Origin: a virus
Strand: one strand, 5' to 3'
IMG/VR virus record: IMGVR_UViG_3300028198_000256
Coordinates: 51,004-115,003 of that record
DNA: 64,000 nucleotides
Both the position numbers and the translations under genes were made by a program. Shown one piece after another: positions 47 through 57,870 of this stretch (the stretch's first letter is position 1; each line of letters opens with the position of its first letter). The notes below the pieces were generated by a model. The model was given only the letters and a program-made list of their open reading frames with translations, had not been told where the DNA came from and did no database searches.

Positions 47-946
47 TTATGTTAAGAAAAAATCATCCAATACAGTTGACGTTGAAGACGTTATATTATT
101 ATGTTTAATATTATCAACTCCCATTTCAAAATCAGGTCTATTTTTATCCGATTCATTAATAATAATAACATCTTTAAGATCTGTTACATCTTTCCATTGT
201 AGTTTATCTTTTTTTGGATAATTCTTAGTCCAATTCATAGACGATAATTTAAGTAATATTTTAGCAGAACGTTTATCTAATGGATATATGTATCTAAACA
301 TATAACCCTTATATCTACGTATACCACGTTCTTTCATAAATCCTGTGGTCAACCAACTCAACTTATCTTTTTTAAACATATCATCATTACGTCTTTCCCA
401 CTCTACATTTTCTTTACATAAATCTTTACTACTTCTTGGATGTAATTTCTCACCATTTTCCATCATATAAACATCTGTCCAATACCGTTCACCAAAATAA
501 AAATTAGATGCTTGATAAACATATCCACATTTACCCATAATTCCATCTGCCATAGTATACAAATATTTACAATTAGTATTCCGTTTAATCCACCTAATAC
601 TTGATGATATCATGCAAGACCCATATGACTTAGTTCCATTTAATTTAGGTAACAAACACATTTTACCAATTTCAAAATAATAATTAGTCAAAGAATGTTT
701 ATATCCAGAACTCCGAACATTTGGAACATTCAATTCAAACAATTCATCCTTCAACGTTGGTAATATTTTAGCAATAGTATGTCTTGGTCGTGTACCCCAC
801 CCCAATGTCATAACTCCTGATAATTCATCCTTTAAAAAAAACCCAAGATAATGTGTAGTTAGTGCCGGCATAACTGGTGAATAATGATACTTTTCTATAA
901 ACATAACAGCTGTTATTTTATCAATTTTTTTTACTTCAAACTTCAT
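47..946 (-). CDS. mom: Mom-family (GNAT-fold) DNA adenine hypermodification enzyme
   Basis: Motifs colinear with phage Mu Mom: HYS, LGFF..DELSGVMTLG, YFEIGKMCL, ADGIMGKCGYVYQASNF, FRYIYPL, YPK; C-terminal VLDDFF. Confidence 0.8.
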   Translation of the reverse strand: MKFEVKKIDKITAVMFIEKYHYSPVMPALTTHYLGFFLKDELSGVMTLGWGTRPRHTIAKILPTLKDELFELNVPNVRSSGYKHSLTNYYFEIGKMCLLPKLNGTKSYGSCMISSSIRWIKRNTNCKYLYTMADGIMGKCGYVYQASNFYFGERYWTDVYMMENGEKLHPRSSKDLCKENVEWERRNDDMFKKDKLSWLTTGFMKERGIRRYKGYMFRYIYPLDKRSAKILLKLSSMNWTKNYPKKDKLQWKDVTDLKDVIIINESDKNRPDFEMGVDNIKHNNITSSTSTVLDDFFLT

Positions 947-2045
947 AATACTCCATAAGTTCTAATGATTCAGCAACCATTAAATTAGTGATTCTACCAT
1001 TATGTGTATATATACCATTTGTGAAATTAGGATCCACGTTATCAAGACCCATATCAGCCAAAACAGTTATATATGGTAATGTCGCCTTAGTAAGTATGTT
1101 AGTAGCACTTTTAGGATATGCACCGGGCATATTAGACACACAATAATGAATAACCCCATGGTGCATAAATACAGGGTTCTGATGACTCCTAATATGTGAC
1201 GTTTCAATGCAACCACCTTGGTCAATAGACACATCAACCACCACCGAACCGTTCCTCATACTTTTTACCATATCTTCAGTAACAACAATAGGAGATTTCT
1301 TTCCTGGTATTGAAACTGCACCAATAACTAAATCAGCATCTTTAACAGCAGGCTCCAAATTCCATGAAGTGGAACACTTATATTCAATAGAAGTATCCAT
1401 ATGACCTCTACTCAAATACTCCCAACGATAATCGGTTTCCAACCCTAAAATAATAACATTAGCACCCATCCCATTTGCCATCTCAGCCGCATGTCTACCA
1501 ACAACACCATCACCAACAACTACCACATTACCAGAATTAACACCATTAATTTTTCCTAGTTGTACACCAGACCCATCAAAAAACATTGACTTATCTGTAT
1601 ACTGAAGATAATAACTACCAATAGTAACCGCCATATTACCAGCAATAGCAGACATAGGTGACAACAACGGTAAATTACCAAAATTATCTGTTATTGATTC
1701 ATATGCTATGGCAGTAGTATTGGTGGATAATAATTTAAGTGTCAGTTCTTTATCTACACCCGCAAGATGAAGATAAGTAAATAATATTTGCCCATTAAAA
1801 TATTTGTATTCTTCCACTTGAGGTTCTTTAACTTTAACCACAAGATCCGAATCCCATGCATAAAAGTCGTGGCATATTGTCGCACCGGATGATATGTAAT
1901 CATCATCCGAATAACCAGAACCAACCCCAGCTTCAAATGTTACACATACAGAGTGACCTCTATCAACCAATTCACGCACACCATTTGGGGTAATTGCTAC
2001 CCTATGTTCGTTTTCCTTTATTTCTTTGATTAATCCAATTTTCAT
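936..2045 (-). CDS. ald: Alanine dehydrogenase
   Basis: MKIGLIKEIKENEHRVAITP, VKVKEP, FTYLHLA, VVVVGDGVVG, DVSIDQGGC, HYCVSNMPGA. Confidence 0.95.
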   Translation of the reverse strand: MKIGLIKEIKENEHRVAITPNGVRELVDRGHSVCVTFEAGVGSGYSDDDYISSGATICHDFYAWDSDLVVKVKEPQVEEYKYFNGQILFTYLHLAGVDKELTLKLLSTNTTAIAYESITDNFGNLPLLSPMSAIAGNMAVTIGSYYLQYTDKSMFFDGSGVQLGKINGVNSGNVVVVGDGVVGRHAAEMANGMGANVIILGLETDYRWEYLSRGHMDTSIEYKCSTSWNLEPAVKDADLVIGAVSIPGKKSPIVVTEDMVKSMRNGSVVVDVSIDQGGCIETSHIRSHQNPVFMHHGVIHYCVSNMPGAYPKSATNILTKATLPYITVLADMGLDNVDPNFTNGIYTHNGRITNLMVAESLELMEYYEV

Positions 2046-2649
2046 ATTTAGTCCTCACTGATTCAACTTCCATCAATCTAGGAAGAATTTCATTAATAAC
2101 CCCTATATACAATTCAGATTCAGTAGCACGACAAGCATCACCTAACGATTGCACATCATCATTATCTCTAACTAAAACTAAATTCTGTTTCAATATCGGT
2201 CCAGAATCATATTCATCAGTAACAATATGTACAGTAACTCCTGTAACCTTATCATTAGACTCTAAGACTGATTTATATATATCATCACCAAACATATTAC
2301 CATGTTTAGGCAATAATGATGGATGGATGTTTAATATTCTATTTTCATACCCATTCAATACTATATTATTAACATGTTTCCTGTATCCAGACAACACTAC
2401 CAGATCAGTTGCAACTGATTTTAATTTATTAAAAATAGCATTATCTTCGTCATGTAGATTAGTTTTACCAGATATTATAGAAACATTAATACCATTATCA
2501 TGACACCATTGAACTATAGGAGCATCTTTATTATTACATATAACAACACCAACTTCAGCTACAATTCTCCATGAATTAATTGCTCCTATAACATCCCTAG
2601 CAGCAGTACCACCATCTGACGCCAAAAAACTAATAATTGGTGTCTTCAT
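2002..2649 (-). CDS. purN: Phosphoribosylglycinamide formyltransferase
   Basis: ILNIHPSLLP, TGVTVH, EYDSGPI formyltransferase motifs. Confidence 0.88.
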   Translation of the reverse strand: MKTPIISFLASDGGTAARDVIGAINSWRIVAEVGVVICNNKDAPIVQWCHDNGINVSIISGKTNLHDEDNAIFNKLKSVATDLVVLSGYRKHVNNIVLNGYENRILNIHPSLLPKHGNMFGDDIYKSVLESNDKVTGVTVHIVTDEYDSGPILKQNLVLVRDNDDVQSLGDACRATESELYIGVINEILPRLMEVESVRTKYENWINQRNKGKRT

Positions 2650-2653
2650 AATA

Positions 2654-4777
2654 TCACCTCAAATCTTTATCAAAATCATCTACCATAATTGATTCATGTT
2701 CTAAAATTCCATCTAATTCGCCTTTCAGATTAGACTCATATGCCCTTTCTAAAATATTTAATGCATCCTTTGTATTAGATGATGTAAAAGTTTTATCTGT
2801 CAACCTAGACCTTGCATCAAATCCTAATGCAGATTTAATTGAATTAGGAACATTGACCACCGACTTCACCATTCTACTATTCAACTTATCTGATGGACCC
2901 TTATATCTTCTACCAAATGGAAATATCAAACGTCTTAATATAAACCCAATGAACTTTGAAGGATAATTGTCTAAAATGTCCTCAAACGATTTCTGTATAT
3001 TATATAATCCAGACTCAGCACCCCATGTAACATATAATATATCATTCTTCTTATCCATATCATCAGTATCTTCGTAACGTTTTAATACCGCAGATGTCAT
3101 ATACAACTCTGAAAATGCATCTGCAAATCTACCAGTTATTCTTTGTCGTTTCTTAAGATCAGCACCCAACACCGATATACTTATATCAGATAACAATGCA
3201 AAGTTCTTTGATTCCAATTCAATACGTTTATAATACTTACCAATTTCACATGATGCGTCTTTTGGTTTAGATATAAACATACCACCAGTAATATTATGAT
3301 ATAATGACCCAAATATATTACCAATAGTATATTTAAGATGACCCATTAACGCCTTATTAAATGCAATCGCATCACCACATTCAGCAGAAGTTACTTCATC
3401 TTTTATAAATGGATGACACCGTAAAGATCCTTGAGAAAATACAATTAGAGATCTCGTTAATATATTCGCACCCTCAACAGTATTAGCAATAGGTTGTGTT
3501 ATATAATAATTCAATAATAAATTATTAGGACCATCAGATATACCCTTTCCAGCCAAAATGTCCATACCATCAATAATACATTGTCGCATCCTTTCAGTAC
3601 ATTGATATTTCAACATGGCAGAAATAACAGATGGTTTTTCACCATTTACTATTGCAGTAGTAGTGAGATTACACGCAGCCTCTACAACATAACATTGTCC
3701 AATTATCCTAGACAATGGCTCTTCAATACCTTCCATCTTGGAAATTGGAATTTTAAATTGTTTTCTTATCCTAGAATATGCAGTAGTAACTTTTAATGTA
3801 TGTTTAATACCAGCCATAGATAATGATGGTAATGATATTGCCCTACCAGCCGCAAGACACGCCATTAACATTCGCCAACCCTTTCCTACCCCATCAATTC
3901 CACCTATAACATGATTCAATGGTAAAAATACATCTTTACCATAATTTGGTCCATTCATAAATGCTTGTCTAGCAGGATAATGTCTGCGTCCTATACGAAC
4001 ACCCTTAGTATCAGTTGGAACTAATACTAAACTTATACCCTCAACAGGAGGCGAATGCTCAGATTCTTTCAATAACTCATCAGGATCCACAATATGACAC
4101 GCAACACCAAGTAATGTAGATACTGGTCCTAGTGTGATATATCGTTTTTCCCAATTTAATCTAATACCTAATACCTTTTCACCGTCATATTCCCCATATT
4201 CAACAACACCATAATCTTCCATCGCCGCAGCATCTGAACCAGAATATGGTCCTGTTAATGCAAATGCCGGTATATCTTTACCTGATGATAATGTAGGTAA
4301 CCATTTATCTTTTTGTTCTTGTGTGCCAAACTCATAAAGCAATTCACCAGGACCCAAAGAATTTGGAACCATAGTAGTAATTGCTAATGATATACTTCTT
4401 GATGCTAAAATTGATATGATACACGATTGTGCATATGCTGAAAATTCCAAACCACCATATTCTTTCTTGATATTAAGTGCAAAAAAACCATTATCTTTTA
4501 AATAATCCCACACCTCAACTGGTAAATCTTTATGTATAACATTAACTTCCCAATCAGACACCATTTCACAAACAGTATCAACTTCAGAGTTAATGAAATC
4601 ATGTTCTTCTTGTGTTAATTTAGTTTGTTCTGTATTTAATAATATATCCCAGTTTGGTCTACCACCAAATAACTCAGATTCCCACCATACTGTACCGGCA
4701 TCTAAAGCCTCTCTTTCAGTATTTGATATCTTTGGTAATATCTTTTGGAATAATTTCATACCATATTCATTCATCAT
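2654..4777 (-). CDS. fadE: Acyl-CoA dehydrogenase, FadE type, lacking the N-terminal membrane segment
   Basis: ISNTEREALDAGTVWWE, MVPNSLGPGELL, FALTGPYSGSDA, WEKRYITLGP, TVEGANILTRSL. Confidence 0.93.
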   Translation of the reverse strand: MMNEYGMKLFQKILPKISNTEREALDAGTVWWESELFGGRPNWDILLNTEQTKLTQEEHDFINSEVDTVCEMVSDWEVNVIHKDLPVEVWDYLKDNGFFALNIKKEYGGLEFSAYAQSCIISILASRSISLAITTMVPNSLGPGELLYEFGTQEQKDKWLPTLSSGKDIPAFALTGPYSGSDAAAMEDYGVVEYGEYDGEKVLGIRLNWEKRYITLGPVSTLLGVACHIVDPDELLKESEHSPPVEGISLVLVPTDTKGVRIGRRHYPARQAFMNGPNYGKDVFLPLNHVIGGIDGVGKGWRMLMACLAAGRAISLPSLSMAGIKHTLKVTTAYSRIRKQFKIPISKMEGIEEPLSRIIGQCYVVEAACNLTTTAIVNGEKPSVISAMLKYQCTERMRQCIIDGMDILAGKGISDGPNNLLLNYYITQPIANTVEGANILTRSLIVFSQGSLRCHPFIKDEVTSAECGDAIAFNKALMGHLKYTIGNIFGSLYHNITGGMFISKPKDASCEIGKYYKRIELESKNFALLSDISISVLGADLKKRQRITGRFADAFSELYMTSAVLKRYEDTDDMDKKNDILYVTWGAESGLYNIQKSFEDILDNYPSKFIGFILRRLIFPFGRRYKGPSDKLNSRMVKSVVNVPNSIKSALGFDARSRLTDKTFTSSNTKDALNILERAYESNLKGELDGILEHESIMVDDFDKDLR

Positions 4778-7551: not shown

Positions 7552-7582
7552 TTAATTTACCTCTTTATTAACTTATATAGAG

Positions 7583-7611: not shown

Positions 7612-7619
7612 GAACTATT

Positions 7620-8495
7620 TTATAAAAATTCATCCAATGTTGATACGTTACTCTTATAATTCATCAATAACAATTCCTTTCTTTTCTTTTGATTCTCCAC
7701 ATATGACGTTAACTGATTATTCATGGTGTATGTGAGATCCCATTCCTCTTGAGTCCATTCACTATACCATTCACGCAGAGTTGGATTGGAATTATATGTA
7801 ATCATACACGTATTACCAGACTTTGATACCTTTTCATAGAATTCTCTATGATTAAATCCTTTATGCATCGAACCATCCTTTCCATATAAAGAATCCTTGA
7901 TATCATATGGCGGATCCAGAAACAAAAATACATTCGGGTCATCATCAATTAATTCAGAATAATCTAGGTTCGTGATTTTCCAATTCTTGATAATCTTTCC
8001 GAATATTGTTAACGATTCTATTACCCTAAAGTTGAAACAATCTCTCATTGCCCATGTTGACATAGTACCAGATTCAGTTAAACCAGAGAAAGACATTCTA
8101 TTCATAGCATACCATCTCCATCCAACCTCAAATGGGTCTGTCTGATCTCCTATCTCCGATTTCATTTCATTGAACAATTCACGACTCTTGTCCACATCAT
8201 CTCCTACTGATTCCTTCTTTTTCTTTAAAATATTGACTAATTGTTCGGTATCACTCTGCAAAGTAATCCAGAAATAATATAGATTCTGATACTTATCATT
8301 TATATGAATGGGAATATTTGGGAATAAACGTGCAAATGCCAAGGAAGGAGACCCCCCACCACCGAAAGCATCTCGGTACTGGGTAATCTCCTTTATATTG
8401 GCTGGAAGTTTGGTATCATGAAACAAATACTTCATTGCCTTTGATTTACCACCTGGATACCTTAGTGGTGTTTTATAGTTGTTTAACGACCTCAC
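7620..8495 (-). CDS. dam: DNA adenine methyltransferase (Dam/D12 class)
   Basis: PLRYPGGKS, DAFGGGGS, FLDPPY; ends STLDEFL. Confidence 0.9.
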   Translation of the reverse strand: MRSLNNYKTPLRYPGGKSKAMKYLFHDTKLPANIKEITQYRDAFGGGGSPSLAFARLFPNIPIHINDKYQNLYYFWITLQSDTEQLVNILKKKKESVGDDVDKSRELFNEMKSEIGDQTDPFEVGWRWYAMNRMSFSGLTESGTMSTWAMRDCFNFRVIESLTIFGKIIKNWKITNLDYSELIDDDPNVFLFLDPPYDIKDSLYGKDGSMHKGFNHREFYEKVSKSGNTCMITYNSNPTLREWYSEWTQEEWDLTYTMNNQLTSYVENQKKRKELLLMNYKSNVSTLDEFL

Positions 8496-18103: not shown

Positions 18104-18886
18104 CTATAGTTCTTCTGGATTACCCCTTGTCGATTCTAAATGTTCAGCCCACGCACAACAGTCATGATACCCTGATGATGAATGATCATTAAAAGAATCT
18201 ATTTCAAATTGCAATAATCCACCACACATACCCCATATATATTGTCCAATCAAATACATTCTAGAATATCCAGAAACAACCCTACCATTACAATCAAAAT
18301 ATTTTAATAATCCAATATGTCTGAATCCAACAAGTTCTAATGGGTGTCGTGTAACTATATCACAATTATTTTTAAATCTATAAAATGTTGGAGTAAACGA
18401 AGATGCAAAATCAGAATCACCCACTCTAGGCGACCCAAAAGTATATCCTATAGAATCTTTTCCACCAAATCGTGATGAGGCTAAAGTACATAAAGCAGCT
18501 CCCAAACTATGACCTGTAAAATATACATTCCTGTGTTTATCTCCGACTATTGAATAATCTACATAATGTTGAAACAAATCATCATATATCAAGTCTAATG
18601 CACCCTTAAACCCCCTATGAACACTACCAATACTGTCTGATTCAACCTTTCTAAATTTTATATCTGCCTCAATATCTGACAATTGTGTCGGTTCCGTCCC
18701 CCGAAATACATATATAATATCTTCATCATCCCATAATCCATAACATTGAGTAGACCCATTATTAAAAAACTTAATATCATATTTCTCTGAATATATTTCT
18801 GAGAAATCTGCAACATCCAAATAAGCATTCATAGACAATCCAGAAAAAAACGTTGCATTTTTATAACTAAATTCCCTATTTAACAT
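18104..18886 (-). CDS. Lipase, class 3
   Basis: VFRGT, VHRGF, TGHSLGAA, TFGSPRVG, NNCDIV. Confidence 0.9.
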   Translation of the reverse strand: MLNREFSYKNATFFSGLSMNAYLDVADFSEIYSEKYDIKFFNNGSTQCYGLWDDEDIIYVFRGTEPTQLSDIEADIKFRKVESDSIGSVHRGFKGALDLIYDDLFQHYVDYSIVGDKHRNVYFTGHSLGAALCTLASSRFGGKDSIGYTFGSPRVGDSDFASSFTPTFYRFKNNCDIVTRHPLELVGFRHIGLLKYFDCNGRVVSGYSRMYLIGQYIWGMCGGLLQFEIDSFNDHSSSGYHDCCAWAEHLESTRGNPEEL

Positions 18887-20178: not shown

Positions 20179-20479
20179 ATGCTTTTAACTTTAAATCTTC
20201 CTCCGTTACAATATCTTCATACCCATCATACTCACGAACATAAAACTTTAACCCCTCTGTAACATATGACAATCTCATATTATCAAACTCATATAAATTA
20301 TGAGTTGGTTCTGACATCTCCATCACCTGTTTATGAAATGATTTCTCATCCCCATGCAAAAATTCATAAATTAATTCAGCATCCATTCTAAGTGATTGGG
20401 GTTTAATGGAAAATCCACTACCCCAACCAGCATGTATAAGAACTCCTACTTTACCATCTGCACTATAATATTTGCCCAT
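20177..20479 (-). CDS. Conserved phage hypothetical protein
   Basis: GKVGVLI.AGWGSGFS and FYVREYDGYE pattern seen in phage proteins. Confidence 0.65.
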   Translation of the reverse strand: MGKYYSADGKVGVLIHAGWGSGFSIKPQSLRMDAELIYEFLHGDEKSFHKQVMEMSEPTHNLYEFDNMRLSYVTEGLKFYVREYDGYEDIVTEEDLKLKA

Positions 20480-22460
20480 CTAAATTCTCCACTAATTGTG
20501 CATCTTGAGAATGATATTGTTTAGTGATTTCTTTATCTGTTTCATCTGAATAATGTAATGGACCACCTCTAAATGGAGCAAATCCAGTACCAAAAATAAT
20601 ACCAGAATCTATAAGATCAGCAGACTCTACAATACCATCATACAAACATAATTTACACTCTCTAATAATTTTTTCAATTAACCTTGTCGTTATCTCTATT
20701 TTAGGATCCGCATAAACCGCATCCACGGGTTTACCTTTGTCATATATGTAAAACCCACTACCAGATTTAATACCCAATTTACCCTTGTCTACTAACTTCT
20801 TTAATCTTTTTGGAACAGTAATTCCAAGATCCTCACTTATTATATCCGTAACAAAATAACAAACATCAAGTCCTACAGTATCTGCCAATAATAATGGACC
20901 CATTGGCATACCAAAATCAGTAAAAGAATTGTCAATTTCTTCTTTACTATATCCCTCATCCAACATATTAATAGCCTCAATAAGTGTAGGCATTAACACA
21001 CGATTAACTAAAAATCCTGGACTCGATTTGACTTTTAATGGTAACTTATCAATATGTCTACAAAATGACATAGACTTCTCTATAACATCCTCTGATGTAA
21101 TATCTGAATATACCACTTCAACCAAAGGCATTTTTGCAACTGGATTAAAGAAGTGTATACCAACTAATCTCTCAGGATTTTTCATTTCACTTGATAATAC
21201 TTCCAACTTGATAGAAGATGTATTAGTGCCCAATATAGCAGTACGTTTCATTTCAGATTCTAATTCACTATATAATTGACGTTTAATATCCGCATTTTCA
21301 ACAATAGCTTCAATGACTATATCTGCGGAAGATATACCATATCCATTTTTATCAGGAATCAACCTATCATACACGTCATTGATTAAATAATCCTTTCCAG
21401 AAAATCTTTTTACATAAAATTTATACGATCTTTTCATTGCGGCAGCTATGGTGTTATCATCAATATCTTGTAAAGTCACCTTATATCCCCTTAGAGCCGC
21501 CCACATTGCAATGTCTCCACCCATTACACCAGCACCTATAACGTGGACATGTTTAAGATCTAACTTAGATTTATCACCAGAAGATTTAAGTAAATCCTGT
21601 AACATAAACACTCGTAATAAATTCTTTGCAGTATCTGTCATTGCTAACTTAGAAACCGACTCCGCCTCTGCATTCATAAAATGATGCTCATCATATCCAT
21701 ATTTTTCCCATATATCAACTAAAGCATATGGAGCAGGATAATGTTGTTTATTTGCCTCTTTCCTTAAATTTCTACGTATCTGCATTGATAATAACTTTCT
21801 ACCAATACCAGAATTCAATACAGAATCTAATTTATCTGGTCGTCTAACGGGAGGACACTTTGCAAGTACATCTTCCGCAGATTTAACTAATAAACGTTCA
21901 GGAACTGCATAATCAACTAATCCCATCTTTTTTGCCTGATATACTGATAAAGTACGTCCACTTAACATCATACCCATAGCCTTAATAACACCAAGAACTC
22001 TAATAGACCTAACAGAACCACCAAATCCAGGATGTATCCCCAACTTAACTTCAGGAAATCCGACTCGGATATTAGGAGAATCTAATATAATTCTATAATC
22101 ACATGATAATGCAAGTTCCAATCCACCACCAAGACACAATCCATTAATTAATGCCAATGTAGGAAATTCCATATCATCAATTAACCACATCACTTCTTGT
22201 CCTTTAGTAATGGCTTCATAAGCATCATCATACTCATGGAAATCCTTAAATTCTGTAACATCAGCACCAGCAATAAACCCAGTTGATTTATCAGAACAAA
22301 TAACCATACCATCAGGATTATCAGATTTAACCTCTAATAATACATCTTTTAATTCCGTTAATACTTCACCAGATAATACATTCATACTACCATAAGAATA
22401 ATCAAAATGTACCCATGCTATATTGTTAGAATATTTTAATTTAAAATGTTTATAATTCAT
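20463..22460 (-). CDS. fadJ: Multifunctional enoyl-CoA hydratase / 3-hydroxyacyl-CoA dehydrogenase (FadJ/FadB)
   Basis: FIAGADV, CLGGGLELAL, PEVKLG, VIGAGVMGG, TNTSS, GIHFFNPV, GMPMGP. Confidence 0.93.
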   Translation of the reverse strand: MNYKHFKLKYSNNIAWVHFDYSYGSMNVLSGEVLTELKDVLLEVKSDNPDGMVICSDKSTGFIAGADVTEFKDFHEYDDAYEAITKGQEVMWLIDDMEFPTLALINGLCLGGGLELALSCDYRIILDSPNIRVGFPEVKLGIHPGFGGSVRSIRVLGVIKAMGMMLSGRTLSVYQAKKMGLVDYAVPERLLVKSAEDVLAKCPPVRRPDKLDSVLNSGIGRKLLSMQIRRNLRKEANKQHYPAPYALVDIWEKYGYDEHHFMNAEAESVSKLAMTDTAKNLLRVFMLQDLLKSSGDKSKLDLKHVHVIGAGVMGGDIAMWAALRGYKVTLQDIDDNTIAAAMKRSYKFYVKRFSGKDYLINDVYDRLIPDKNGYGISSADIVIEAIVENADIKRQLYSELESEMKRTAILGTNTSSIKLEVLSSEMKNPERLVGIHFFNPVAKMPLVEVVYSDITSEDVIEKSMSFCRHIDKLPLKVKSSPGFLVNRVLMPTLIEAINMLDEGYSKEEIDNSFTDFGMPMGPLLLADTVGLDVCYFVTDIISEDLGITVPKRLKKLVDKGKLGIKSGSGFYIYDKGKPVDAVYADPKIEITTRLIEKIIRECKLCLYDGIVESADLIDSGIIFGTGFAPFRGGPLHYSDETDKEITKQYHSQDAQLVENLDGQIL

Positions 22461-22463
22461 AAT

Positions 22464-25180: not shown

Positions 25181-25189
25181 ATCACCGAA

Positions 25190-38069: not shown

Positions 38070-40341
38070 GTCTTTTTTCAATAAACATTGAAATTCTTTC
38101 CCATATTAAATCAGAATTATTATACAATATACCATGACAATCAGAACCAATAATATGCATTTCTTTATCTACAGAAGATATATTATTATATATATAATCA
38201 GCACCATCTACTGAAACTAATGTGTCATCCTTAGAATAAATGACCAACATAGGTATTGTTACATCACATAAACACTTCTTCACACTTTTAACTAATTTAC
38301 CTATTTCATATATACTACGTGTGGGAACTAACCAATAATTAATATGTTCATTCTCTGGAATATTCTTAAAAAAAGGTTTCACTCCATTATTCCCTATCAC
38401 CAAACCCACCACCCTATTAACATAATGAACTAATGGTGCAAATTTAACCCGGAAATCCGTATAAAAAAATGGAGCTGATATAACAACTACTGATTTAACT
38501 CTATAATCAGAAGAAAATTCTTCACGTAATGCAATAAGTCCGCCAGTAGAAAATCCAACAATCACAATATTTTCAGATAACATAGAAGTTATTTGAAAAT
38601 ACTCGTATACTGATTTAATCCAATCTTCATAACTATATGATAACAAATCATAAGGTGATGTACCATGTCCAACTATTCTTGCACCAACTACAATATATCC
38701 TATACCACATAAATATTCACCAAAACCTCTAACTTCATATGGAGATGACAATAATCCATGGATTAATAACACAACAATACCATTAGACTTCTTAGGAAAT
38801 AGAATAAATGGTTTATTATCAGAAGAATTAATACCATCAAATTTAGAATTATATTTATCATTAATATACATATTCTTATCGTACTCATATGACAACTGTT
38901 GGTCGTCCAATAAATGCATTGCAATATCTTTGTTACTAATAGTATCTACACTTTCAACAATCTTATTAATAACTTTACCAACAATAGAAACCGGCTGTAC
39001 TTCATTATAATATACAACTAATAAATTCTCAACCCTAACCGTCAACGGATCTACACCAGAATCAAAATTACCAGATAAATATATAACATCACCACCAATA
39101 ATTAGCAATCCTTGTTTTTCAAGAGAATCAATATACTTAATCATGTTAACATTATTACCATTTAATATATCACCATATATATTAGGTCGCATTAAACCAT
39201 CGTGCAACCTCACTCCTGATTTATGTTGTAATGTTTTTAATGTTAAATATAACTCCTTATAAAGTGTTTTCTTATTTACAAATGATATATTTTGTTTGAA
39301 TCTATACATCAATAAACAAGATGTCAGATGGCTTAAATTAATAGTAACATAAGAATAAATACTTTTAGTGTAAAAGTCACGTGTAACATTAGAACACTTT
39401 ATGAGATGTTTATGCAACATCTCACCTTTCCAAGACTTATCAACACTACCAATAGAAAACACATCATCTAAGGATTTTATAGAATCAGTAAATGTTTCAG
39501 TTAAAGATGACTTCCATGAATGCCAAATACCGGAGGTAGATATCACTTTACTCATAACAACATCCATATCAGTATCTTTAGTAATTAAATTCCCCTCAAC
39601 TATCAATTCTTCTGTTTGTCGTAATGTAAGTCCATTAGAAATATATTCAACAGCCTTCAATAAAACATTATCAGTCGCACGTAAAGGATAAAACGTTATA
39701 TTAGATGCAACTATATTAGTAGGTATTTCTACTGCTGCCAATAACTCATCCAAACTATGAAAATCTAATTCCTTTTGCCACATTAATAATCTATCCATAT
39801 CCATATCTCTATGAGCATTACGAACTATGAACTTAAACACCTCCAACCCATGTGACAAAACAGCTGCACCAGTATGTTGTTTCCGCACTTTCATGGTTGT
39901 TTGACATAACATATTATAATGTCCTTCATCATCAACAACCCGATGATCCTTTACCATCCCACCTTCAGGGAAAATAACTACTTTATGACCATGTAATATT
40001 TGTTTTGCTAATATAGAAAACAACCTTGGATGATCATGTGGTACAACCCCCAACTTCGTTAAATACGATGACAATATACCATCATTTTTAAAAAATTCAC
40101 CAGAACCAACAGAATAACAATAACTACCATTTTCTTCATGTATCAAATATTGAGGAATAAATGTTTCTATACGAGAAAAATGATTAAATACAAATATACT
40201 ACCATCATTTATATTACACGCAGAATGAATATTAACATTCATGCGTAACACTTTCTTCATAATACGAAATGCTCGTAAAGACAAACGATACATACGTTTG
40301 TCTATATCAACCCAATCATGATTATACTTAGAAAGTTTCAT
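38059..40341 (-). CDS. Glycerolipid acyltransferase (PlsB/C-like) fused to an alpha/beta hydrolase
   Basis: N-terminal NHFSRIET and IFPEGG; C-terminal LIHGL, GHGT, GFSTGG, D and H triad candidates. Confidence 0.8.
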   Translation of the reverse strand: MKLSKYNHDWVDIDKRMYRLSLRAFRIMKKVLRMNVNIHSACNINDGSIFVFNHFSRIETFIPQYLIHEENGSYCYSVGSGEFFKNDGILSSYLTKLGVVPHDHPRLFSILAKQILHGHKVVIFPEGGMVKDHRVVDDEGHYNMLCQTTMKVRKQHTGAAVLSHGLEVFKFIVRNAHRDMDMDRLLMWQKELDFHSLDELLAAVEIPTNIVASNITFYPLRATDNVLLKAVEYISNGLTLRQTEELIVEGNLITKDTDMDVVMSKVISTSGIWHSWKSSLTETFTDSIKSLDDVFSIGSVDKSWKGEMLHKHLIKCSNVTRDFYTKSIYSYVTINLSHLTSCLLMYRFKQNISFVNKKTLYKELYLTLKTLQHKSGVRLHDGLMRPNIYGDILNGNNVNMIKYIDSLEKQGLLIIGGDVIYLSGNFDSGVDPLTVRVENLLVVYYNEVQPVSIVGKVINKIVESVDTISNKDIAMHLLDDQQLSYEYDKNMYINDKYNSKFDGINSSDNKPFILFPKKSNGIVVLLIHGLLSSPYEVRGFGEYLCGIGYIVVGARIVGHGTSPYDLLSYSYEDWIKSVYEYFQITSMLSENIVIVGFSTGGLIALREEFSSDYRVKSVVVISAPFFYTDFRVKFAPLVHYVNRVVGLVIGNNGVKPFFKNIPENEHINYWLVPTRSIYEIGKLVKSVKKCLCDVTIPMLVIYSKDDTLVSVDGADYIYNNISSVDKEMHIIGSDCHGILYNNSDLIWERISMFIEKRLDI

Positions 40342-41378
40342 AATGTTAAAAAACCATCAAGTGTCGGAATATTCTTACGTTCAATCTCAGTATTAACATT
40401 CTCTTTAGTTATCTTAAAAAACTGTTCTGATGCTTCAAATCCAATATACTTTCTACCAAGTTGTGATGCTCTAACTAATGTAGTTCCTGTGCCAGAAAAG
40501 GGGTCAAGAACAACACCACCTACTGGACAACCCGCAATTATAGGTTTATCAATTAATTCTGAATTATATGAAGCAAGGTGTGAAGAACGATTACCCTTTA
40601 TCGTGATATTCCAAAAATCAGACACATCACCCGGGTTCTTTCCTTTTGGATTTAATGAAGTATTACCACTATTGTATTCATCAATATCACGTCCACCATT
40701 CTTTGGTCTAGAAAGAGTTTGAGCGGAACTCACCCCAATACCAGTAGAATACTTATTTTCATTAGTACCACGTAAGGCTCTTTTAATAGAAGTAGTCATA
40801 TTCTCATCACGAATAGAATCAAGGTCAAAATAATAACCTTTAGGTTTCTTCGTCATTAAAAAGATATATTCGTGTTTCTTTGAGAATCTATCACGAACCG
40901 ATTCAGGCATACCATTTCTCTTTGCCCAGATTATATCATTACGAATAGTCCATCCACGGTCATAACAACCAATAGCAAATCTATGAGGAATCAATAATAA
41001 ACTTTTAGGTTTCAAATCAGATGGTTGGTTAATCTTCATACCACCCAAATAATCACCAGTTCTACTTCCAGTATGACCAGTATTAAGTCCACCAGATTTA
41101 GTAGAATATGTATCACCAAGATTGATCCATACAGTACCAGTATCTTTTAAAACTCTATGAATTTCATCCATCATTTCCCATAAATGTTCAAGATATTCTT
41201 GGAATGTGGGTTCTAATCCCCACTGACCATCAAACCCATAATCCCTTAATTGCCAATATGGTGGTGACGTAATGACACAATCAATAGAATTATCATCTAA
41301 CTTTTTGAAACCTTCCATGATGTCACAATTATATATTTTATCCAAATTAAACCCCCCACTATATTCATAGTATACCAC
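40338..41378 (-). CDS. DNA methyltransferase (SPPY, N4-cytosine type); real start probably the TTG of LDKIY
   Basis: TSPPYW, WINLGD, IIWAKRN, VLDPFSGTGTT; ends PTLDGFLTL. Confidence 0.88.
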   Translation of the reverse strand: MVYYEYSGGFNLDKIYNCDIMEGFKKLDDNSIDCVITSPPYWQLRDYGFDGQWGLEPTFQEYLEHLWEMMDEIHRVLKDTGTVWINLGDTYSTKSGGLNTGHTGSRTGDYLGGMKINQPSDLKPKSLLLIPHRFAIGCYDRGWTIRNDIIWAKRNGMPESVRDRFSKKHEYIFLMTKKPKGYYFDLDSIRDENMTTSIKRALRGTNENKYSTGIGVSSAQTLSRPKNGGRDIDEYNSGNTSLNPKGKNPGDVSDFWNITIKGNRSSHLASYNSELIDKPIIAGCPVGGVVLDPFSGTGTTLVRASQLGRKYIGFEASEQFFKITKENVNTEIERKNIPTLDGFLTL

Positions 41379-44330: not shown

Positions 44331-45608
44331 TTAAAACTGTTCCTCTTCAGTAGAACCATCCATAGCAGTAACCGATGAGTTACCACCTTGTATAACATTT
44401 GTAACAGAATCAAAATAACCAGCACCAACTTCCTCTTGATGCCTTGCAAATGTATATCCATCTTTAACCGAATTAAACTCAGGTTCTTGGACACCCTCCA
44501 CATAAGCAGTCATACCACGTTCAACATAATCTTTTGACAACTCAAACATAGAATGCCACATATCATGAATACCAGCCAGCGTAATAAATTGCCACTTGAA
44601 CCCCATCTCTCCCAATTTTTGTTGATAGTGTGCTATTTCTTCGTCGCTCAAATTCTTCTTCCAATTAAAAGACGGTGAGCAGTTATAAGCCAGCAACTTG
44701 CCAGGATACTGTTGGTGTATCGCAGTCGCAAATTTTTGAGCCTCTTCTAAATTCGGCACCGCAGTTTCACACCAAAGCATATCAGCATAAGCCGCATAAG
44801 ATAATCCCCTTGATATCGCTTGGTCTATTCCGCAGTTGACTCTAAAAAAACCCTCTTCAGTTCTCTCCCCTGTGACGAATTCCTTGTCACGAACATCAAT
44901 ATCAGATGTCAGCAAAGTTGCTGCGTTAGCATCTGTCCTTGCGATAATAACGATAGGCACACCCATAACATCAGATGCCAATCTCGCGGATACTAGTTTC
45001 TGGATTGCCTCTTGGGTTGGCACTAACACCTTACCACCCATGTGTCCACATTTCTTAGCAGATGACAGTTGATCTTCTAAATGAATACCAGACACACCAC
45101 ACTCTATCATAGATTTAGTCAACTCATAAGAGTTCAACACCCCCCCAAACCCAGCCTCAGCATCTGCGATAATTGGAGCAAAGTAATCAATATCATTTCT
45201 TCCCTTATTCCATTGGATTTCATCTGCTCTACGGAATGTATTATTAATACGTCTTACCATCATTGGTACTGAATTATATGCATATAATGATTGATCTGGA
45301 TACATAGTTTCTGACGAATTACCATCAGCAGCAACTTGCCAACCTGATAAATATATAACCTTAATACCAGCCTTAACTTGTTGCATTGCCTGTCCAGCAG
45401 TTATAGCACCCATAGAATTAACATATCCATCTTCGTTAATCAATTTCCAAAGTTTTTTAGAACCCACGGTAGACACTGTATATTCTTCATCAAACGAACC
45501 ACTTAACCTAATAACATCTTCTGCCGAATAATCACGTTTGACATTCAACCAACGCTCATTCTCTCTCCAATCTTTCTCTAAAGTTCGAACTCTACCCAAT
45601 TGTTCCAT
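44331..45608 (-). CDS. aceA: Isocitrate lyase
   Basis: [58 protein letters not shown]. Confidence 0.97.
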
Positions 45609-49673: not shown

Positions 49674-49688
49674 GATATTAACTAAAAC

Positions 49689-51077: not shown

Positions 51078-51085
51078 CTTAATTC

Positions 51086-51831: not shown

Positions 51832-52568
51832 TATTCTTCCTCATCATCTGTGTCAGTTCCATCAACACTACCATCCAAATAATGCATATACGTACCAATA
51901 ATATATTTATCATTAGATTTTGGAACATCACCTACATGTGGGTGTGTCCAAAATGGAGGAAATATTACAATAGTACCTTTCTTGGGTTTAATATTAATAC
52001 CATATTCAGGAAATATAGTTTCACCACCTTCCTCAACATCATTTAAATATAAAAATATAACCAAAAACCTTCTTGCAGATGGGTGATCACCAACATCCAC
52101 ATGATAATTGAAAAAATCTTCCTTTTCTGTACTATATTTTTTAATTCTAATCTCTTCGCAAGCAGCATTTCTAGGGAAAAATGATATATTATAAAATCTG
52201 CGATAACTCTCAATATAATCATATATCATTGTCATAAACTCGTATGAAAGTTTAGATGGTTCGGTGGTTGGTTTCTTTCCATCAATCAACTCATTATCAA
52301 ATAAATTCAACTCTGTAAATTGACGATATTCAGGATGTGCAGTATGTGTATGATCATCCTCATTTTCATCGAAAAACTTCACAACCTTATCACACCATTC
52401 CTCTGATATTGCACTTTCCCATGTTGAAACAAAAGCAGAATTAGTGGTTGGTTCAATAACCACAAAATCGTCAGTTGATTCCGTTTCTTCACTTTCCACA
52501 TTTACACTTTCGTTATTAACTTCAACATCACTCAATTCAACAGTTCCTACTACTTCTTCTTTACTCAT
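51831..52568 (-). CDS. 2OG-Fe(II) oxygenase
   Basis: HVD, YLNDVEEGGET, FPPFWTHPH, KY. Confidence 0.85.
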   Translation of the reverse strand: MSKEEVVGTVELSDVEVNNESVNVESEETESTDDFVVIEPTTNSAFVSTWESAISEEWCDKVVKFFDENEDDHTHTAHPEYRQFTELNLFDNELIDGKKPTTEPSKLSYEFMTMIYDYIESYRRFYNISFFPRNAACEEIRIKKYSTEKEDFFNYHVDVGDHPSARRFLVIFLYLNDVEEGGETIFPEYGINIKPKKGTIVIFPPFWTHPHVGDVPKSNDKYIIGTYMHYLDGSVDGTDTDDEEE

Positions 52569-53947
52569 AATACTATCTCCACATTTCCAATACGTTTATT
52601 ATTCCCGACACCAGTATAATTCTGACCGCCAGATTCGTTTGATATATTTGATTGTGCCGAATCCGACACATCATATAATCTCATCTTTGACTTATCAACC
52701 CCAACCACAAATCTCTTAGTCATATTTGGATCATTATATCTATTCTTTAATTGTTTAATCATAATTTGATTTAAATCATCCATTTCTTCTGAAGATATTA
52801 ACGCGAACATCAAATCCGCAGTAGCTGGTAAACCAAAACTTTCTGAAGTATCTTCCAATCCAAAATCAGAAGATACAAACCCCTGTCTGTTCACTTGAGT
52901 TGCACTAACCAATGGAACATTATATTCAACGGCAAGTCCACGTAATTCCTCAGCTATAGATTTTACATATGTATATGAATTTACATTACTCCCACCCTTT
53001 AATCTAGATGAAGTACATATATTCAGATAATCTATAAAAATAACATCAGGTTTAAATGAAATCTTTAACCACAACTCATTCAATAAATGTTTGAAATGAT
53101 TCGTGGATGCAGAAGCGGTTGGATACTCCTTAATTATCAACTTTCCAGTTATTTTTGATTTTGCCCTATCAATTCTTTTTGTATATATATCTAAAGGTAA
53201 CTCTGACAACTTCTGTATAGGTGTATCAAGTAAATTAGCATCAATACGTTCTGCAATCTTTTCTTCTGACATCTCTAATGTAATATACAAAACATTAAAC
53301 CCACTACATATATGACTTGCGGCAAGATCACACATAAATAAAGATTTCCCAACACCAGTACCAGCCATTGCAATATTTAAAGTCTTTCTAGAAAGACCAC
53401 CTTTAGTTATCTTATTGAACTTATCAATACCAAATGGTATTTTTTCTTCAACTCGATGATAAAATTCCCACCTCTCTTTATAATCATTAACAAAATCATG
53501 TCCAACATTATTATCAAAAGATACAGCAAGAGCCTCAGTCAATATCTTTGGTATCTCCCCTTTATCTTTAGTTCCTTTATCATCATCAATTATACCAATA
53601 GATTCTAAAATACCATTATATAATGCCCTTTCCTTACACCATTCCTCAGTAGTATCTAACAAATATTCTAAATCTTCTTTAACACAATCACCTAATACAT
53701 CTATAACATCCTTTGTAGATGTATAAAGAGATTCGACACCATCCATAGAATCAATTCCTATATATAATGAATTTAAACTTGGACGATTATTATATTTTAC
53801 AATATACTCATCAACCATGTTATATATTAATTTATATCTATCATCACTAAAATATTCACTTTCTATATATGGTATTACTTTCCTACAATATTCATCATTA
53901 TTTATCAGATTCTTCAATATTGTCAATTCCGTCAGACTCATCTTCAC
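52565..53947 (-). CDS. 41: Replicative helicase (T4 gp41)
   Basis: AGTGVGKS, ITLEMSEE, IKEYPT, IDYLNI, SESFGLPATAD, KQLKNRY. Confidence 0.95.
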   Translation of the reverse strand: MKMSLTELTILKNLINNDEYCRKVIPYIESEYFSDDRYKLIYNMVDEYIVKYNNRPSLNSLYIGIDSMDGVESLYTSTKDVIDVLGDCVKEDLEYLLDTTEEWCKERALYNGILESIGIIDDDKGTKDKGEIPKILTEALAVSFDNNVGHDFVNDYKERWEFYHRVEEKIPFGIDKFNKITKGGLSRKTLNIAMAGTGVGKSLFMCDLAASHICSGFNVLYITLEMSEEKIAERIDANLLDTPIQKLSELPLDIYTKRIDRAKSKITGKLIIKEYPTASASTNHFKHLLNELWLKISFKPDVIFIDYLNICTSSRLKGGSNVNSYTYVKSIAEELRGLAVEYNVPLVSATQVNRQGFVSSDFGLEDTSESFGLPATADLMFALISSEEMDDLNQIMIKQLKNRYNDPNMTKRFVVGVDKSKMRLYDVSDSAQSNISNESGGQNYTGVGNNKRIGNVEIVL

Positions 53948-54296
53948 TCTCTTTATTGTCTAAATATTCATATAATAAAAAATTCAAAATCTTACCAACA
54001 ACTATTTTAAATTCGTCAGATTCATCTAATTGTTCTATGGTATATTCCGAATTACCAACCAACACATTATATTCAAATTGTATATTTAATCTATCCTCAG
54101 TTTCTTCGGGTTCAATACTACCATATTTATAAACAACATCTACATATTCCCCCTTAGAAAGTTTAACAGCATAATAATCAAAATTATCGTTTTCTACAAC
54201 TTCAAATAATTCTTTAAATTCATTTACTACGTCATCAGATAACATAACATTAGCACATTCACTCAATCGTTCATCCATATCACACCCCTCAATCAT
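53898..54296 (-). CDS. gp40-like head vertex assembly chaperone
   Basis: Syntenic position between uvsX and 41; YKYGSI...FEY pattern. Confidence 0.6.
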   Translation of the reverse strand: MIEGCDMDERLSECANVMLSDDVVNEFKELFEVVENDNFDYYAVKLSKGEYVDVVYKYGSIEPEETEDRLNIQFEYNVLVGNSEYTIEQLDESDEFKIVVGKILNFLLYEYLDNKESEDESDGIDNIEESDK

Positions 54297-55347
54297 TAAA
54301 CAGATAATCAGTATCTGTAATAAGTTTTTTATTACTAGAAATACAATATTTATTACTTAAAAATGTTAAAAATTTATCAGATTGTAATATAGGTTTCCAA
54401 AATTCTATATTATTCGTAGTAGCCCCCCTAAACTTTTTATCTACAATCTCACCAGTTTCTAAATCAATAAGATTATACCAACCACCGGATCTCTTTATTA
54501 TACCACAATCCACCGCCATGTCAAGTAACCCAGACCATCTATCCAATCCATCCTCAAAGGAAACATTTATAGGTATCTTCGATTTCTCTTTAACATACCT
54601 AGATTTCTCTATATTAATTATAAAATTATAACCCGTCAGATCAGAACCAGTTTTATCTTGTTGTCTACCAACAATCCATATATTATCGGAAGAATAATAT
54701 GCACCCTTACCACCAGACACCACTTGTTTTGAAAACATTTCTTGTGTGTCATACGTATGATTAATAACAATCATTGGAATGTCATTTAATGTAAGATGTG
54801 GTGTAACCATCCTAAATAATGACTTGAATTGTTTTGCCCTTGTCATATCAGCAGCACTCTTCTCTGCATGGGCATCATCTACCTCTTTTTTCGATGCTAA
54901 ATTACCAACAGAATCTATCATAATAAATATTCTATCATCACGACTGATTTCCTTCACTTGTTTCATAATATCAAATTTAAGTTCCTCTAAATCTGTAACA
55001 GGAACATGCAACACTCTACTCGTATCAATCTCAAATGTATCAAAATATGATTGCGGTGTACCAAATTCGCTGTCATAAAATATACATATAGACTCTTCAT
55101 ACTTATCCATATAAGATTTCATACATAATAAACCAAATGCCGTCTTAAAATGTTTTGATGGTCCAGCAATCATAGTTAACCCAGAACTAAATCCACCAAA
55201 AGGACTTCCAGAAAAAGCAATATTAATAGCAGGAACTTTAGTAGTCACCACATCATTGTTATTCAAATAAATAGAATCTTGCAATACAGAAATTCTATCC
55301 TGCAACGTGGAATTCTTCCTCATTCTTTCCATTAAACCCATACACAA
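54289..55347 (-). CDS. uvsX: RecA-like recombinase UvsX
   Basis: AGPSKHFKT, YDSEFG, DSVGNLAS, ADMTRAK, NHTY. Confidence 0.95.
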   Translation of the reverse strand: MCMGLMERMRKNSTLQDRISVLQDSIYLNNNDVVTTKVPAINIAFSGSPFGGFSSGLTMIAGPSKHFKTAFGLLCMKSYMDKYEESICIFYDSEFGTPQSYFDTFEIDTSRVLHVPVTDLEELKFDIMKQVKEISRDDRIFIMIDSVGNLASKKEVDDAHAEKSAADMTRAKQFKSLFRMVTPHLTLNDIPMIVINHTYDTQEMFSKQVVSGGKGAYYSSDNIWIVGRQQDKTGSDLTGYNFIINIEKSRYVKEKSKIPINVSFEDGLDRWSGLLDMAVDCGIIKRSGGWYNLIDLETGEIVDKKFRGATTNNIEFWKPILQSDKFLTFLSNKYCISSNKKLITDTDYLFND

Positions 55348-55353
55348 TCTCCT

Positions 55354-57870
55354 TTATAAAAAATCATCTAAAACATTCCTACGTTCTACTGACCACCCTA
55401 TAGCATCCGTTATAGTTTTAATTGGATCTAAAAACGTTTTAATAAACTGAAGTTCATAATTGATATACGTATCTAATTTAAATTCTGGTGGCAACACATC
55501 CAACATGGATATGGTGTTATTATGAATAGGATTTGGTTCAGATAAATAACAAAATTTTATCTTATCCCCAGATTTTATTTCTTGATATTTACCAACCAAA
55601 CCAAGTTCTTTCAATAAATGATTATAAAATAAAGCACCCTTTACATGTATAGGAGTACCCTTTATATAAACATCTCTAGAATTATAATACTTATTAATAG
55701 CATTAATACCGCGTGGAAATGATATATCCACTATATTCATTTTTTTAAATTGTTCTTTGAATTCGTCAATAAACTCTATTAACTCATCATTGGTGTTAGA
55801 AAGAATTATTTTTAAAGATTCTTTGATTTTATCTCTGCAACATTCAGGTGTAGAACTTCTAACAGCCTCTATACCCATCATCTTTAATTTCGGAGTTGTA
55901 TATCTAACCCCCTCATCATCATATACATTTAATATATATCTCTTCTTTGCAGTCCATATACCAGCATCGGCAATAACTTCACGGGACATAACCATCTTAT
56001 TTTCATACCCATACATATAATTATACAAGTCTTTATATGCAGATTCTAACATTGGTTCAAACTTATCACCACATATCTTATCTAAAACATCAACCACTTT
56101 ATTTTTATTAGATGTATCCAATCCCAATTTAGTCACTAGCGGTTTAAAGTCAACATATAAAGAATCAGTATCAATTGCAATCACATAATCCTCAGAACCA
56201 ATACCCATTATCTTATTAAGATATTCATTCATATATTTCTCCGCCCACTTAATAGATAACTGACCAGACAAAGTAACACCCTCTGCAACTCGTAAATCAT
56301 AATATCTAAAATAAGGATTACCTAACGCACCATATAATGAATTCATCATAATCTTAATAGCTAATTGCTGATTATGTAATGAAGAAATCTGATTATCCAA
56401 CTTACCATGTTGAACACCCTCACGTTGTTTTTTGAGTTTAATCATATTCTTCTTAATAACACTTCGTTCAGAATATAATTTATCAATTACAGATGGTATT
56501 ACCCCAAGAACATCTGTCTTATAATGAGTGCCATTTGCCGCCATAGTAGATTCAGTAGAACCATACTGCCTATCAAAATCCATCATACTTAAACAACTAT
56601 CTACATCAACACCACTAGTAACTAACGGCAATATAGTTTCGGGTGACATATTATATTGTTGTAATAACATAGGATATAAACTATTCAAATCAAAAGATAC
56701 AATCCACTCATGTTTACCAATAAATGGGGTTTTAACATACCCACCAGCAAACGTACTCTTTATATTTTCTTTCTTTGGTGGAGGTACCATTTTTTGTGAT
56801 GATAAAAGCCGATAAATTAATGAATCCCATATTACAGTAGTACCAAACGCAGTTTCATAATTAACACCACCCTTATATGCAATATTAAAACACAGATCCA
56901 TCAATTGTAATTTAACATCCAACCTATCTACAATTTCAACATCTTTTATATTATAATCAATATATAATTGAAAATTGTTCGTGTATAAATCATGAAGATC
57001 AGTATATTCATGATATTGTAATTTACGATCACCAAGTTCGACATAAGCAACATGATCAAGTCTATATGACTCTAAATTTTTATATGTGAATTTACGATAT
57101 AAATCTATATAATCAATCTGTTGAATACCGTATATAACATAATATGGATGTTCCTTACCCATCTTTAATGTGGTTCTTTGACTAACCATATTCCATGGTG
57201 ATATCTTTTTCATAAAAGAGTCACTAAATAATCTAATACTACGATTAACTATATATGGTATGTCAAAAAACTTAATATTCCATCCAGTAATAACATCAGG
57301 AACATGTCCATCACTTGATAAAAATTTTATAAACTTACTTAATAAATCACCCTCATCATCACATTTAATATATTCTATATCTAAATGATCATGGATTGAA
57401 TCCTTCACCGAATATTCACCAAACCCAAACACATAGTATATATTTGAATTATCTTTAACTGTTATAGCTGTTATTGGGAATTTTGCTTGAGTCGGATCAG
57501 GAAACCCATCATCAGAATCAACTTCAATATCAATATTAGTTACATTAATTAAATCAGTATCAAATTCAATAACACCATCATGTTTATCATTAATATATTG
57601 TGATATATAATTACTCATACCATAAACATTAAAACTATCCACGTTCTCATATTTCTTCATAAACTCATGAGAATCTTTCATATTATCAAAAGATAGTTCT
57701 GATACAGATTCACCACTAATGGTTTTCCATGGACTATCAGAATTATTATTATTTGTAACATATAACGTGGGTTTATAATATTCTTTATATTTAACCACAT
57801 TACCACCATCATCGTATCCGCAATATAATATATTATTGCCCACTTTCTCAACAGATGTATAAAAACTCAT
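55354..57870 (-). CDS. 43: Family B DNA polymerase (T4 gp43)
   Basis: DIEV, GWNIKFFD, SFDLNSLYP, KIMMNSLYG, IDTDS, KKRY; ends NVLDDFL. Confidence 0.97.
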   Translation of the reverse strand: MSFYTSVEKVGNNILYCGYDDGGNVVKYKEYYKPTLYVTNNNNSDSPWKTISGESVSELSFDNMKDSHEFMKKYENVDSFNVYGMSNYISQYINDKHDGVIEFDTDLINVTNIDIEVDSDDGFPDPTQAKFPITAITVKDNSNIYYVFGFGEYSVKDSIHDHLDIEYIKCDDEGDLLSKFIKFLSSDGHVPDVITGWNIKFFDIPYIVNRSIRLFSDSFMKKISPWNMVSQRTTLKMGKEHPYYVIYGIQQIDYIDLYRKFTYKNLESYRLDHVAYVELGDRKLQYHEYTDLHDLYTNNFQLYIDYNIKDVEIVDRLDVKLQLMDLCFNIAYKGGVNYETAFGTTVIWDSLIYRLLSSQKMVPPPKKENIKSTFAGGYVKTPFIGKHEWIVSFDLNSLYPMLLQQYNMSPETILPLVTSGVDVDSCLSMMDFDRQYGSTESTMAANGTHYKTDVLGVIPSVIDKLYSERSVIKKNMIKLKKQREGVQHGKLDNQISSLHNQQLAIKIMMNSLYGALGNPYFRYYDLRVAEGVTLSGQLSIKWAEKYMNEYLNKIMGIGSEDYVIAIDTDSLYVDFKPLVTKLGLDTSNKNKVVDVLDKICGDKFEPMLESAYKDLYNYMYGYENKMVMSREVIADAGIWTAKKRYILNVYDDEGVRYTTPKLKMMGIEAVRSSTPECCRDKIKESLKIILSNTNDELIEFIDEFKEQFKKMNIVDISFPRGINAINKYYNSRDVYIKGTPIHVKGALFYNHLLKELGLVGKYQEIKSGDKIKFCYLSEPNPIHNNTISMLDVLPPEFKLDTYINYELQFIKTFLDPIKTITDAIGWSVERRNVLDDFL

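Follow-up and report, generated by a model that had tools for sequence, protein, structure and literature searches.

Unrelated DNA modifiers of a distant T4-like phage end in a tail resembling the probable clamp-docking peptide of its DNA polymerase

The C-terminal 11-mer of the RB69 DNA polymerase, gp43, has been co-crystallized with the RB69 sliding clamp, gp45, and the tails of T4 gp43, gp55, and gp33 have been described as "highly similar" and freely interchangeable (PMC2988020; PMC9690074). A DNA modifier, the T4 alpha-glucosyltransferase (alpha-GT), has also been reported to bind gp45 (Sommer et al. 2004, as cited in PMC13216743); the pull-down was repeated in PMC13216743, in which modification concomitant with replication was the hypothesis. 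Here, we analyzed a 64,000-nucleotide stretch of viral DNA (the window; positions 51,004 to 115,003 of IMG/VR record IMGVR_UViG_3300028198_000256), which is the right-hand part of a 115-kb viral contig with a CheckV completeness of ~64%. In this contig, a Mom-type adenine modifier, a Dam adenine methyltransferase (MTase), and three beta-class N6/N4 MTases end, like the resident gp43, in an L-D-x-F-[LF] peptide. The best explanation, for which we estimate a probability of about 0.75, is that these tails are gp45 clamp-docking motifs, so that new DNA would be modified while it is copied.

The tails share with the T4 and RB69 epitopes a hydrophobic-acidic C-terminal peptide that follows a variable linker and is common to unrelated proteins of one phage, but the clients here are DNA modifiers and not just a polymerase and transcription factors. 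The alpha-GT precedent likewise concerns a DNA modifier that physically binds a T4-type clamp; however, the T-even enzyme (400 amino acids [aa], ending ...FKEQFDIITK) has no appended polymerase-like tail, and the precedent implicates neither an MTase nor Mom. A marine alpha-GT homologue (L217) is tailed (...QGLEAFFA). In the DNMT1-PCNA system, a DNA methyltransferase is brought to new DNA by a short clamp-binding motif (PMC9690074), whereas DNMT1, unrelated in sequence to the phage enzymes, maintains cytosine methylation and relies on a PIP box (Qxx[IL]xxFF) that is internal. The plasmid enzymes M.BceJIII and M.EcoGIX are mobile-element MTases functionally coupled to the replication machinery, and the clamp has been suggested as a possible mediator of their association with Pol I; they differ in being single-strand specific, in co-purifying with Pol I, and in having no reported clamp motif (PMC7736820). 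Mom of phage Mu (PF25680; 8BV8) represents the family and fold of the window's Mom, and the paper describing it makes no mention of the clamp (PMC13219725). A literature search that did not extend to subscription journals gave no report of phage MTases or Mom with tails that bind a clamp, the alpha-GT/gp45 interaction being the only precedent.

All five recognized DNA modifiers of the contig carried the tail, which ended zero to two residues from the C-terminus in these proteins and in gp43 (Table 1). The earlier note on this DNA had quoted five C-termini, all of which were confirmed, and Pfam supported its identification of Mom, Dam, two MTases, PolB, and gp45. Its statement that all four modifiers are tailed held for those four but set the count too low, since a 310-aa enzyme of the beta class, the third in the contig, lies outside the window, 1.8 kb before its start. 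The three beta-class enzymes were paralogues with 35 to 40% identity and PF01555 scores of 115 to 181 bits, and the whole contig contained exactly three PF01555 genes. No C5 or gamma-class MTase was found in whole-contig family searches, and no further modifier family was found among the remaining open reading frames (ORFs) of the window and of locus L001.

The tailed modifiers had the expected domains. The Mom protein scored 157 bits against PF25680 (cut-off, 27 bits), and the best Foldseek match of its AF2 model (pLDDT, 90) was Mu Mom 8BV8 (E value, 3e-12; probability, 1.0). In a phmmer alignment, its segment ISSS was paired with ISYA in the S124A chain of 8BV8 and may include a counterpart of the catalytic S124 of Mu Mom. 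The 8BV8 chain has 232 residues, whereas the window's Mom continues for ~50 residues past the Pfam Mom domain before the tail, and its residues 286 to 299 were modeled with a pLDDT of <50, i.e., as a disordered tail. All four MTases retained [DS]PPY (motif IV) and FxGxG (motif I) in the order expected of their class: FGGGG at residue 44 and then DPPY at 194 in Dam, DPPY at 38 and FMGSG at 446 in the 493-aa enzyme, and SPPY at 38 and FSGTG at 294 in the 346-aa enzyme. The MTase Pfam domains stopped 12 to 33 residues short of the C-terminus. In the proposed reading, the tails would be flexible extensions of catalytic domains that are complete without them.

The pattern L[DE].F[LF] occurred 7 times in the ~34,000 positions of the 169-ORF proteome, and 6 of these occurrences, all on gp43 or the modifiers, fell within the last 10 residues of a protein, where 0.03 was expected (Poisson P of ~1e-12); residue shuffles gave a mean of 0.06 and a maximum of 2. 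Among the window and flanking ORFs examined, no tail was found on metabolic, chaperone, or other replisome proteins, in agreement with the earlier remark that the metabolic proteins lack it. Functionless similar ends, arising by chance, shared descent, or gene conversion, might be favored by an AT-rich genome that narrows codon choice, and the three paralogous beta-class MTases could share one ancestral tail. This explanation is nevertheless very improbable. Chance was rejected on the enrichment relative to the internal motif frequency; Mom, Dam, PolB, and the beta-class MTases have unrelated folds; and in related phages the tail also occurs on TET, TAGT, AGT, and a C5-MTase. A cause at the DNA level, either a repeat or a regulatory element where the genes end, was rejected as well, because the Leu codons differ among the tailed genes (TTG, CTT, and TTA) and the DNA downstream of them is unrelated, which indicates that the similarity was selected at the protein level. 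The earlier proposal that unrelated modifiers each gained a tail stands for Mom, Dam, and the beta-class lineage, to which independent gain may be limited, since the three beta-class MTases may share a single inherited tail.

The tail of gp43 linked these ends to a characterized clamp peptide. The last 200 residues of the window's gp43 aligned to residues 699 to 899 of the 903 residues of RB69 gp43, placing RRNVLDD(FL) opposite KKASLFD(MFDF); by this alignment, the tail of gp43 and the clamp-binding peptide of RB69 are homologous in position. The proposed docking partner, gp45, matched RB69 gp45 (1b77/1b8h) and T4 gp45 (1czd) over its full length in phmmer comparisons, and the phage that encodes the tailed modifiers also encodes this clamp and its loader, gp44/62.

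Tails were retained in relatives although the enzyme bodies had diverged; the linker and the x position varied, while the motif residues stayed. STLDEFL was kept in Dam relatives at 86 to 98% identity, and those at 45 to 52% identity ended in NPLERFFS, NTLEDFMI, or TSLDTFLS. Relatives of the 493-aa MTase ended in STLEKFL, SPLDEFFS, STLEDFFA, or SPLLDFFE, those of the 310-aa MTase ended in SNLKDFIEK or T[SN]LDNFFFDGII, and Mom relatives at 46 to 48% identity ended in VTLESFF or NLEEFMA. In a specificity census of 178 related loci with 1,594 ORFs, the tail was present on 12 of 13 gp43 proteins, 7 of 9 Mom proteins, 24 N6/N4 MTases, and 8 Dam proteins, and on only 11 of 1,362 other ORFs. Glycosyltransferases of the TAGT (TET-associated) kind, AsnB-like amidotransferases, and a fragment of an N6 MTase accounted for 7 of these 11. 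Further tailed proteins were encoded near other gp43 genes, namely PD-(D/E)XK nucleases, an alpha-glucosyltransferase, and a C5 MTase.

In G003, a complete relative of 134.5 kb (CheckV, 100%), 5 of 215 ORFs were tailed: gp43, a gp55-like sigma factor (ending TALELFMSAA), an AsnB-like enzyme, and two MTases, the gene of one of which overlaps that of the AsnB-like enzyme. The presence of both classical clamp clients in so small a set ties the motif to gp45. The AsnB-like glutamine amidotransferase (L183:13239-14675:+ in G003; also in L169 and L170 at 1568-3004) ends in NPLESFFG, and its gene overlaps the next MTase gene by 4 nucleotides; we regard it as a candidate new DNA hypermodification enzyme. 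In the cultured OM43 phage Melnitz (MZ577097.1), gp43 (TTLEDFFG), Mom (TATLEGFF), and a TET/JBP oxygenase (GNLNDFLGE) were tailed; the oxygenase is annotated as hypothetical and the Mom homologue as DUF465 (L282:5208-6194:+ and L280:5992-6801:+).

The form of the tail varied together with that of the resident polymerase. Three clade variants were found, ...DDFL (here), ...E[DS]FF[GAV], and ...DDIFG, and in 17 of 28 pairs (permutation mean, 10.1; P = 0.0035) the client and its resident gp43 had the same FL, FF, or IF variant. Co-resident pairs included gp43 STLESFF with Mom VTLESFF, gp43 TLEDFFA with MTase TLEDFFA, gp43 TLEDFFG with nuclease TLEDFFG, and gp43 TMDDIFG with clients ending ILEDIFG and DLSDIFGE.

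More distant MTase homologues carried a different clamp motif at the same position. Homologues of the 346-aa MTase at 50 to 65% identity shared its scaffold and catalytic motifs but ended in Q-x-x-[LM]-F, an end found on 56 homologous MTase ORFs of the 178-locus census; in alignment A3 of this enzyme (28 rows), a TL[DE]xF tail was present in 6 close relatives and QxxLF in 22 more distant ones. QL(S/D)LF is the bacterial beta-clamp-binding pentapeptide type (PMC9690074), and, as in bacterial beta-clamp clients, Q-x-x-[LM]-F is found at the ends of homologues of both the 346-aa and the 493-aa MTases from gp45-less phages and metagenome-assembled genome (MAG) contigs. The window enzymes, in contrast, bear the gp45-type tail: no C-terminal QL[S/D]LF-type pentapeptide was found on them, as they end in LDxFL with no Gln. 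gp45 was absent from all five Q-x-x-[LM]-F contigs examined, two of which were at least 90% complete. Ten MTase homologues in MAG contigs had beta-type ends or no tail, with the sole exception of one with a gp45-type end on a 106-kb phage-like contig. No paper that lists DNA MTases among beta-clamp clients was found. In the complete phage genome G005 (74.7 kb, with direct terminal repeats), a 347-aa DnaN-like ORF (G005:C1:58667-58876, on the contig of L060; a sub-threshold match of 24.9 bits) adjoins an MTase homologue ending ...ARPKSFFNI. Two distant homologues of the 493-aa MTase (L173:107-1855:+ and L175:2752-4305:+) end in QVGLDFDFGAAS and QMGFDFEDGGAA, respectively, a third tail type exactly like neither LDxFL nor QxxLF.

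The core of the earlier proposal, that unrelated DNA modifiers carry the clamp-docking tail of the polymerase, was supported by every comparative test that was run: the homology of the gp43 tail to that of RB69, conservation, covariation with gp43, the swap to a beta-clamp motif where gp45 is lacking, and the confinement of the tail to proteins that act on DNA. The earlier interpretation as a whole is partly supported. Several observations weigh against docking. The motif pattern was drawn up after the data had been seen, and no judgment on the tail of the 346-aa MTase could be drawn from its poor AF2 model (pLDDT, 58). The register of L-D-x-F-L differs from that of the T4 motif S-L-D-F-L-[FY] (end of RB32/T4 gp55, SPSLDFLYEAND); with one extra residue, it is a clade variant and not the T4 sequence, and the likeness to (S/T)LDFL(F/L) drawn in the earlier note therefore holds in kind but not in identity. 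In other T4-like contigs, the tail was missing from about 59 Dam homologues, many of which adjoin gp45, and it was also missing from the Melnitz C5 MTase encoded between gp43 and TET; docking is therefore not obligatory for phage modifiers. Tail-like ends were present in only ~10 of 56 full-length Mom representatives, so that the tail is a lineage-specific add-on and not a trait of the Mom family. Finally, because the window contig ends inside gp47, gp55 was examined in the closest relative, G001, whose gp45 is 70% identical; its gp55 homologue (phrog_234, L180:3026-3730:-) ends in KHNENSIDN, without a clamp epitope, and a frameshift hiding the tail was excluded. The hydrophobic clamp epitope of gp55 is treated as conserved in the T4 literature, from which this protein departs.

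The untailed gp55 means that the classical gp45 client set is incompletely reproduced in the clade, as would be expected if the tail addressed another partner, such as a protease (with the tail as a degron), gp32, the clamp loader, or a packaging or localization factor. We consider such a partner quite improbable, since the bearers include gp43, with its tail at the exact position of the crystallized RB69 clamp peptide, and gp55 in G003, and since the orthologous MTases of gp45-less phages have a beta-clamp motif, a swap predicted only by a clamp partner.

Alternatively, the tails might bind gp45 but serve mainly in something other than replication-coupled protection, such as clamp occupancy, polymerase exchange, recruitment to nicks or recombination intermediates, or a marginal kinetic gain. 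In T4, promoter strength and not gp45 binding sets the alpha/beta glucosylation ratio, and the alpha-GT/gp45 interaction fails to account for the modification shares (PMC13216743), which counts both for such a role and against replication-coupled modification; the gp45 trimer, moreover, offers three sites to at least six clients plus the loader, and PD-(D/E)XK nucleases are also tailed in relatives. Set against these points, nearly all bearers have duplex DNA as substrate and a DNA-protecting product, and conservation of the tail across 45 to 98% body identity argues for a selected enzyme-clamp link, so that a different main role seems unlikely.

The phage itself is a distant marine T4-like phage, with a gp43 at most 47% identical to that of any deposited phage and with cyanomyoviruses and their relatives nearest. 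The window has a GC content of ~32%, and the minus strand carries nearly all of its genes. A T4 replication module is encoded (gp46, gp47, gp45, gp44, gp62, RegA, gp43, UvsX, gp41, and RNase H), in which gp47, upstream of gp46, is interrupted by the contig end. The coordinates of these and other features are collected in Table 1.

Table 1. Tailed proteins, replication genes, and other genes. Positions are those of the window unless a locus is named.
Feature	Position	Strand	Family match	C-terminal end or tail (encoded at)
Mom-type adenine modifier, GNAT fold, 299 aa	47-946	-	PF25680	...STVLDDFFLT; TVLDDFFLT (50-76)
D12-class Dam adenine MTase, 291 aa	7620-8495	-	PF02086 over residues 13-258, 85 bits	...VSTLDEFL; STLDEFL (7623-7643)
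Beta-class N6/N4 MTase, 493 aa	35658-37139	-	PF01555 (N6_N4_Mtase)	...VTDLDSFL; TDLDSFL (35661-35681)
Beta-class N6/N4 MTase, 346 aa	40338-41378	-	PF01555	...IPTLDGFLTL; PTLDGFLTL (40341-40367)
Third beta-class N6/N4 MTase, 310 aa	G000:C1:48255-49187 (L001:8255-9187)	-	PF01555	...TSTLDDFL
gp43, family-B DNA polymerase	55354-57870	-	DNA_pol_B and exo domain	NVLDDFL (55357-55377)
gp45, sliding clamp, proposed docking partner	60536-61249	-	gp45-slide_C	
gp44, clamp loader	59589-60530	-	Gp44_lid/AAA	
gp62, clamp loader	59184-59585	-	Phage_clamp_A	
gp46	61463-63190			
RegA	58774-59166			
UvsX	54289-55347			
gp41	52565-53947			
RNase H	28314-29219			
SAM lyase family ORF	33837-34442	-	PF23780, 42.5 bits	
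NrdB-glutaredoxin gene	34452-35645			
Zinc-ribbon-like ORF, 48 aa	29231-29377	-	Weak Zn-ribbon and Lar-like matches	YLSLDFGE
Acyl-CoA dehydrogenase, class-3 lipase, FadB/J-like hydratase-dehydrogenase, thiolase, isocitrate lyase, DnaK, and DnaJ	2654-4777, 18104-18886, 20463-23768, 44331-45608, 24158-27100			

Several other genes of the window stood out. Its lipid-catabolism and chaperone set (last row of Table 1) is unusually complete for a T4-like phage. A SAM lyase family ORF lies ~1.2 kb from the 493-aa MTase gene, separated from it by the NrdB-glutaredoxin gene, and it coexists with four SAM-dependent MTases in one phage. Immediately upstream of RNase H, a zinc-ribbon-like ORF of 48 aa has an end that resembles T4 SLDFL; considered as a gp33 candidate, this ORF gave only the weak matches listed in Table 1.

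If the tails are gp45-docking motifs, they would share with the polymerase tail one and the same binding site on the gp45 trimer. Since gp44/62 loads gp45 only at primer-template junctions and nicks, clamps mark replicating or just-replicated DNA. Docking would then concentrate Mom and the four MTases on nascent phage duplex, and the modifiers would act on it before host nucleases reach it, probably through clamps left behind the fork or through free trimer subunits (a "tool-belt"). Mom acts on double-stranded DNA using Gly-tRNA(Gly) (PMC13219725), a substrate that fits action behind the fork. Docking might also, as the earlier note suggested, limit a potentially toxic Mom to phage DNA. It is from the comparative pattern that we infer physical binding, the timing of action, and a benefit, either for protection or for sparing other DNA.

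More broadly, we lean, by a little better than even odds, toward the tail being a modular, exchangeable "clamp address," in which one catalytic scaffold would end in a gp45-type tail where the phage is T4-like and in a beta-clamp QxxLF where the phage relies on a clamp of the beta type. Such an address would be used by at least 10 families, among them Mom, Dam, beta-class and C5 MTases, TET, TAGT, alpha-glucosyltransferases, AsnB-like enzymes, and small nucleases, and replication-coupled marking would then be widespread. The exchange of gp45-type for beta-type motifs would constitute a natural experiment on how a short linear motif is re-addressed as genes move between replication systems, and the same arrangement is present in a cultured phage, Melnitz on OM43. 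The tail would also offer a simple sequence rule by which DNA-modifying enzymes not yet known as such could be recognized, among them the AsnB-like bearers and those without annotation. If the tails do bind the clamp, the epigenetic self-protection of these phages would be wired directly to the replisome, which would explain how lytic phages complete modification in the short interval before nuclease exposure, and replication-coupled marking of nascent DNA would be a viral analogue of DNMT1-PCNA and a so far undescribed layer of anti-restriction.

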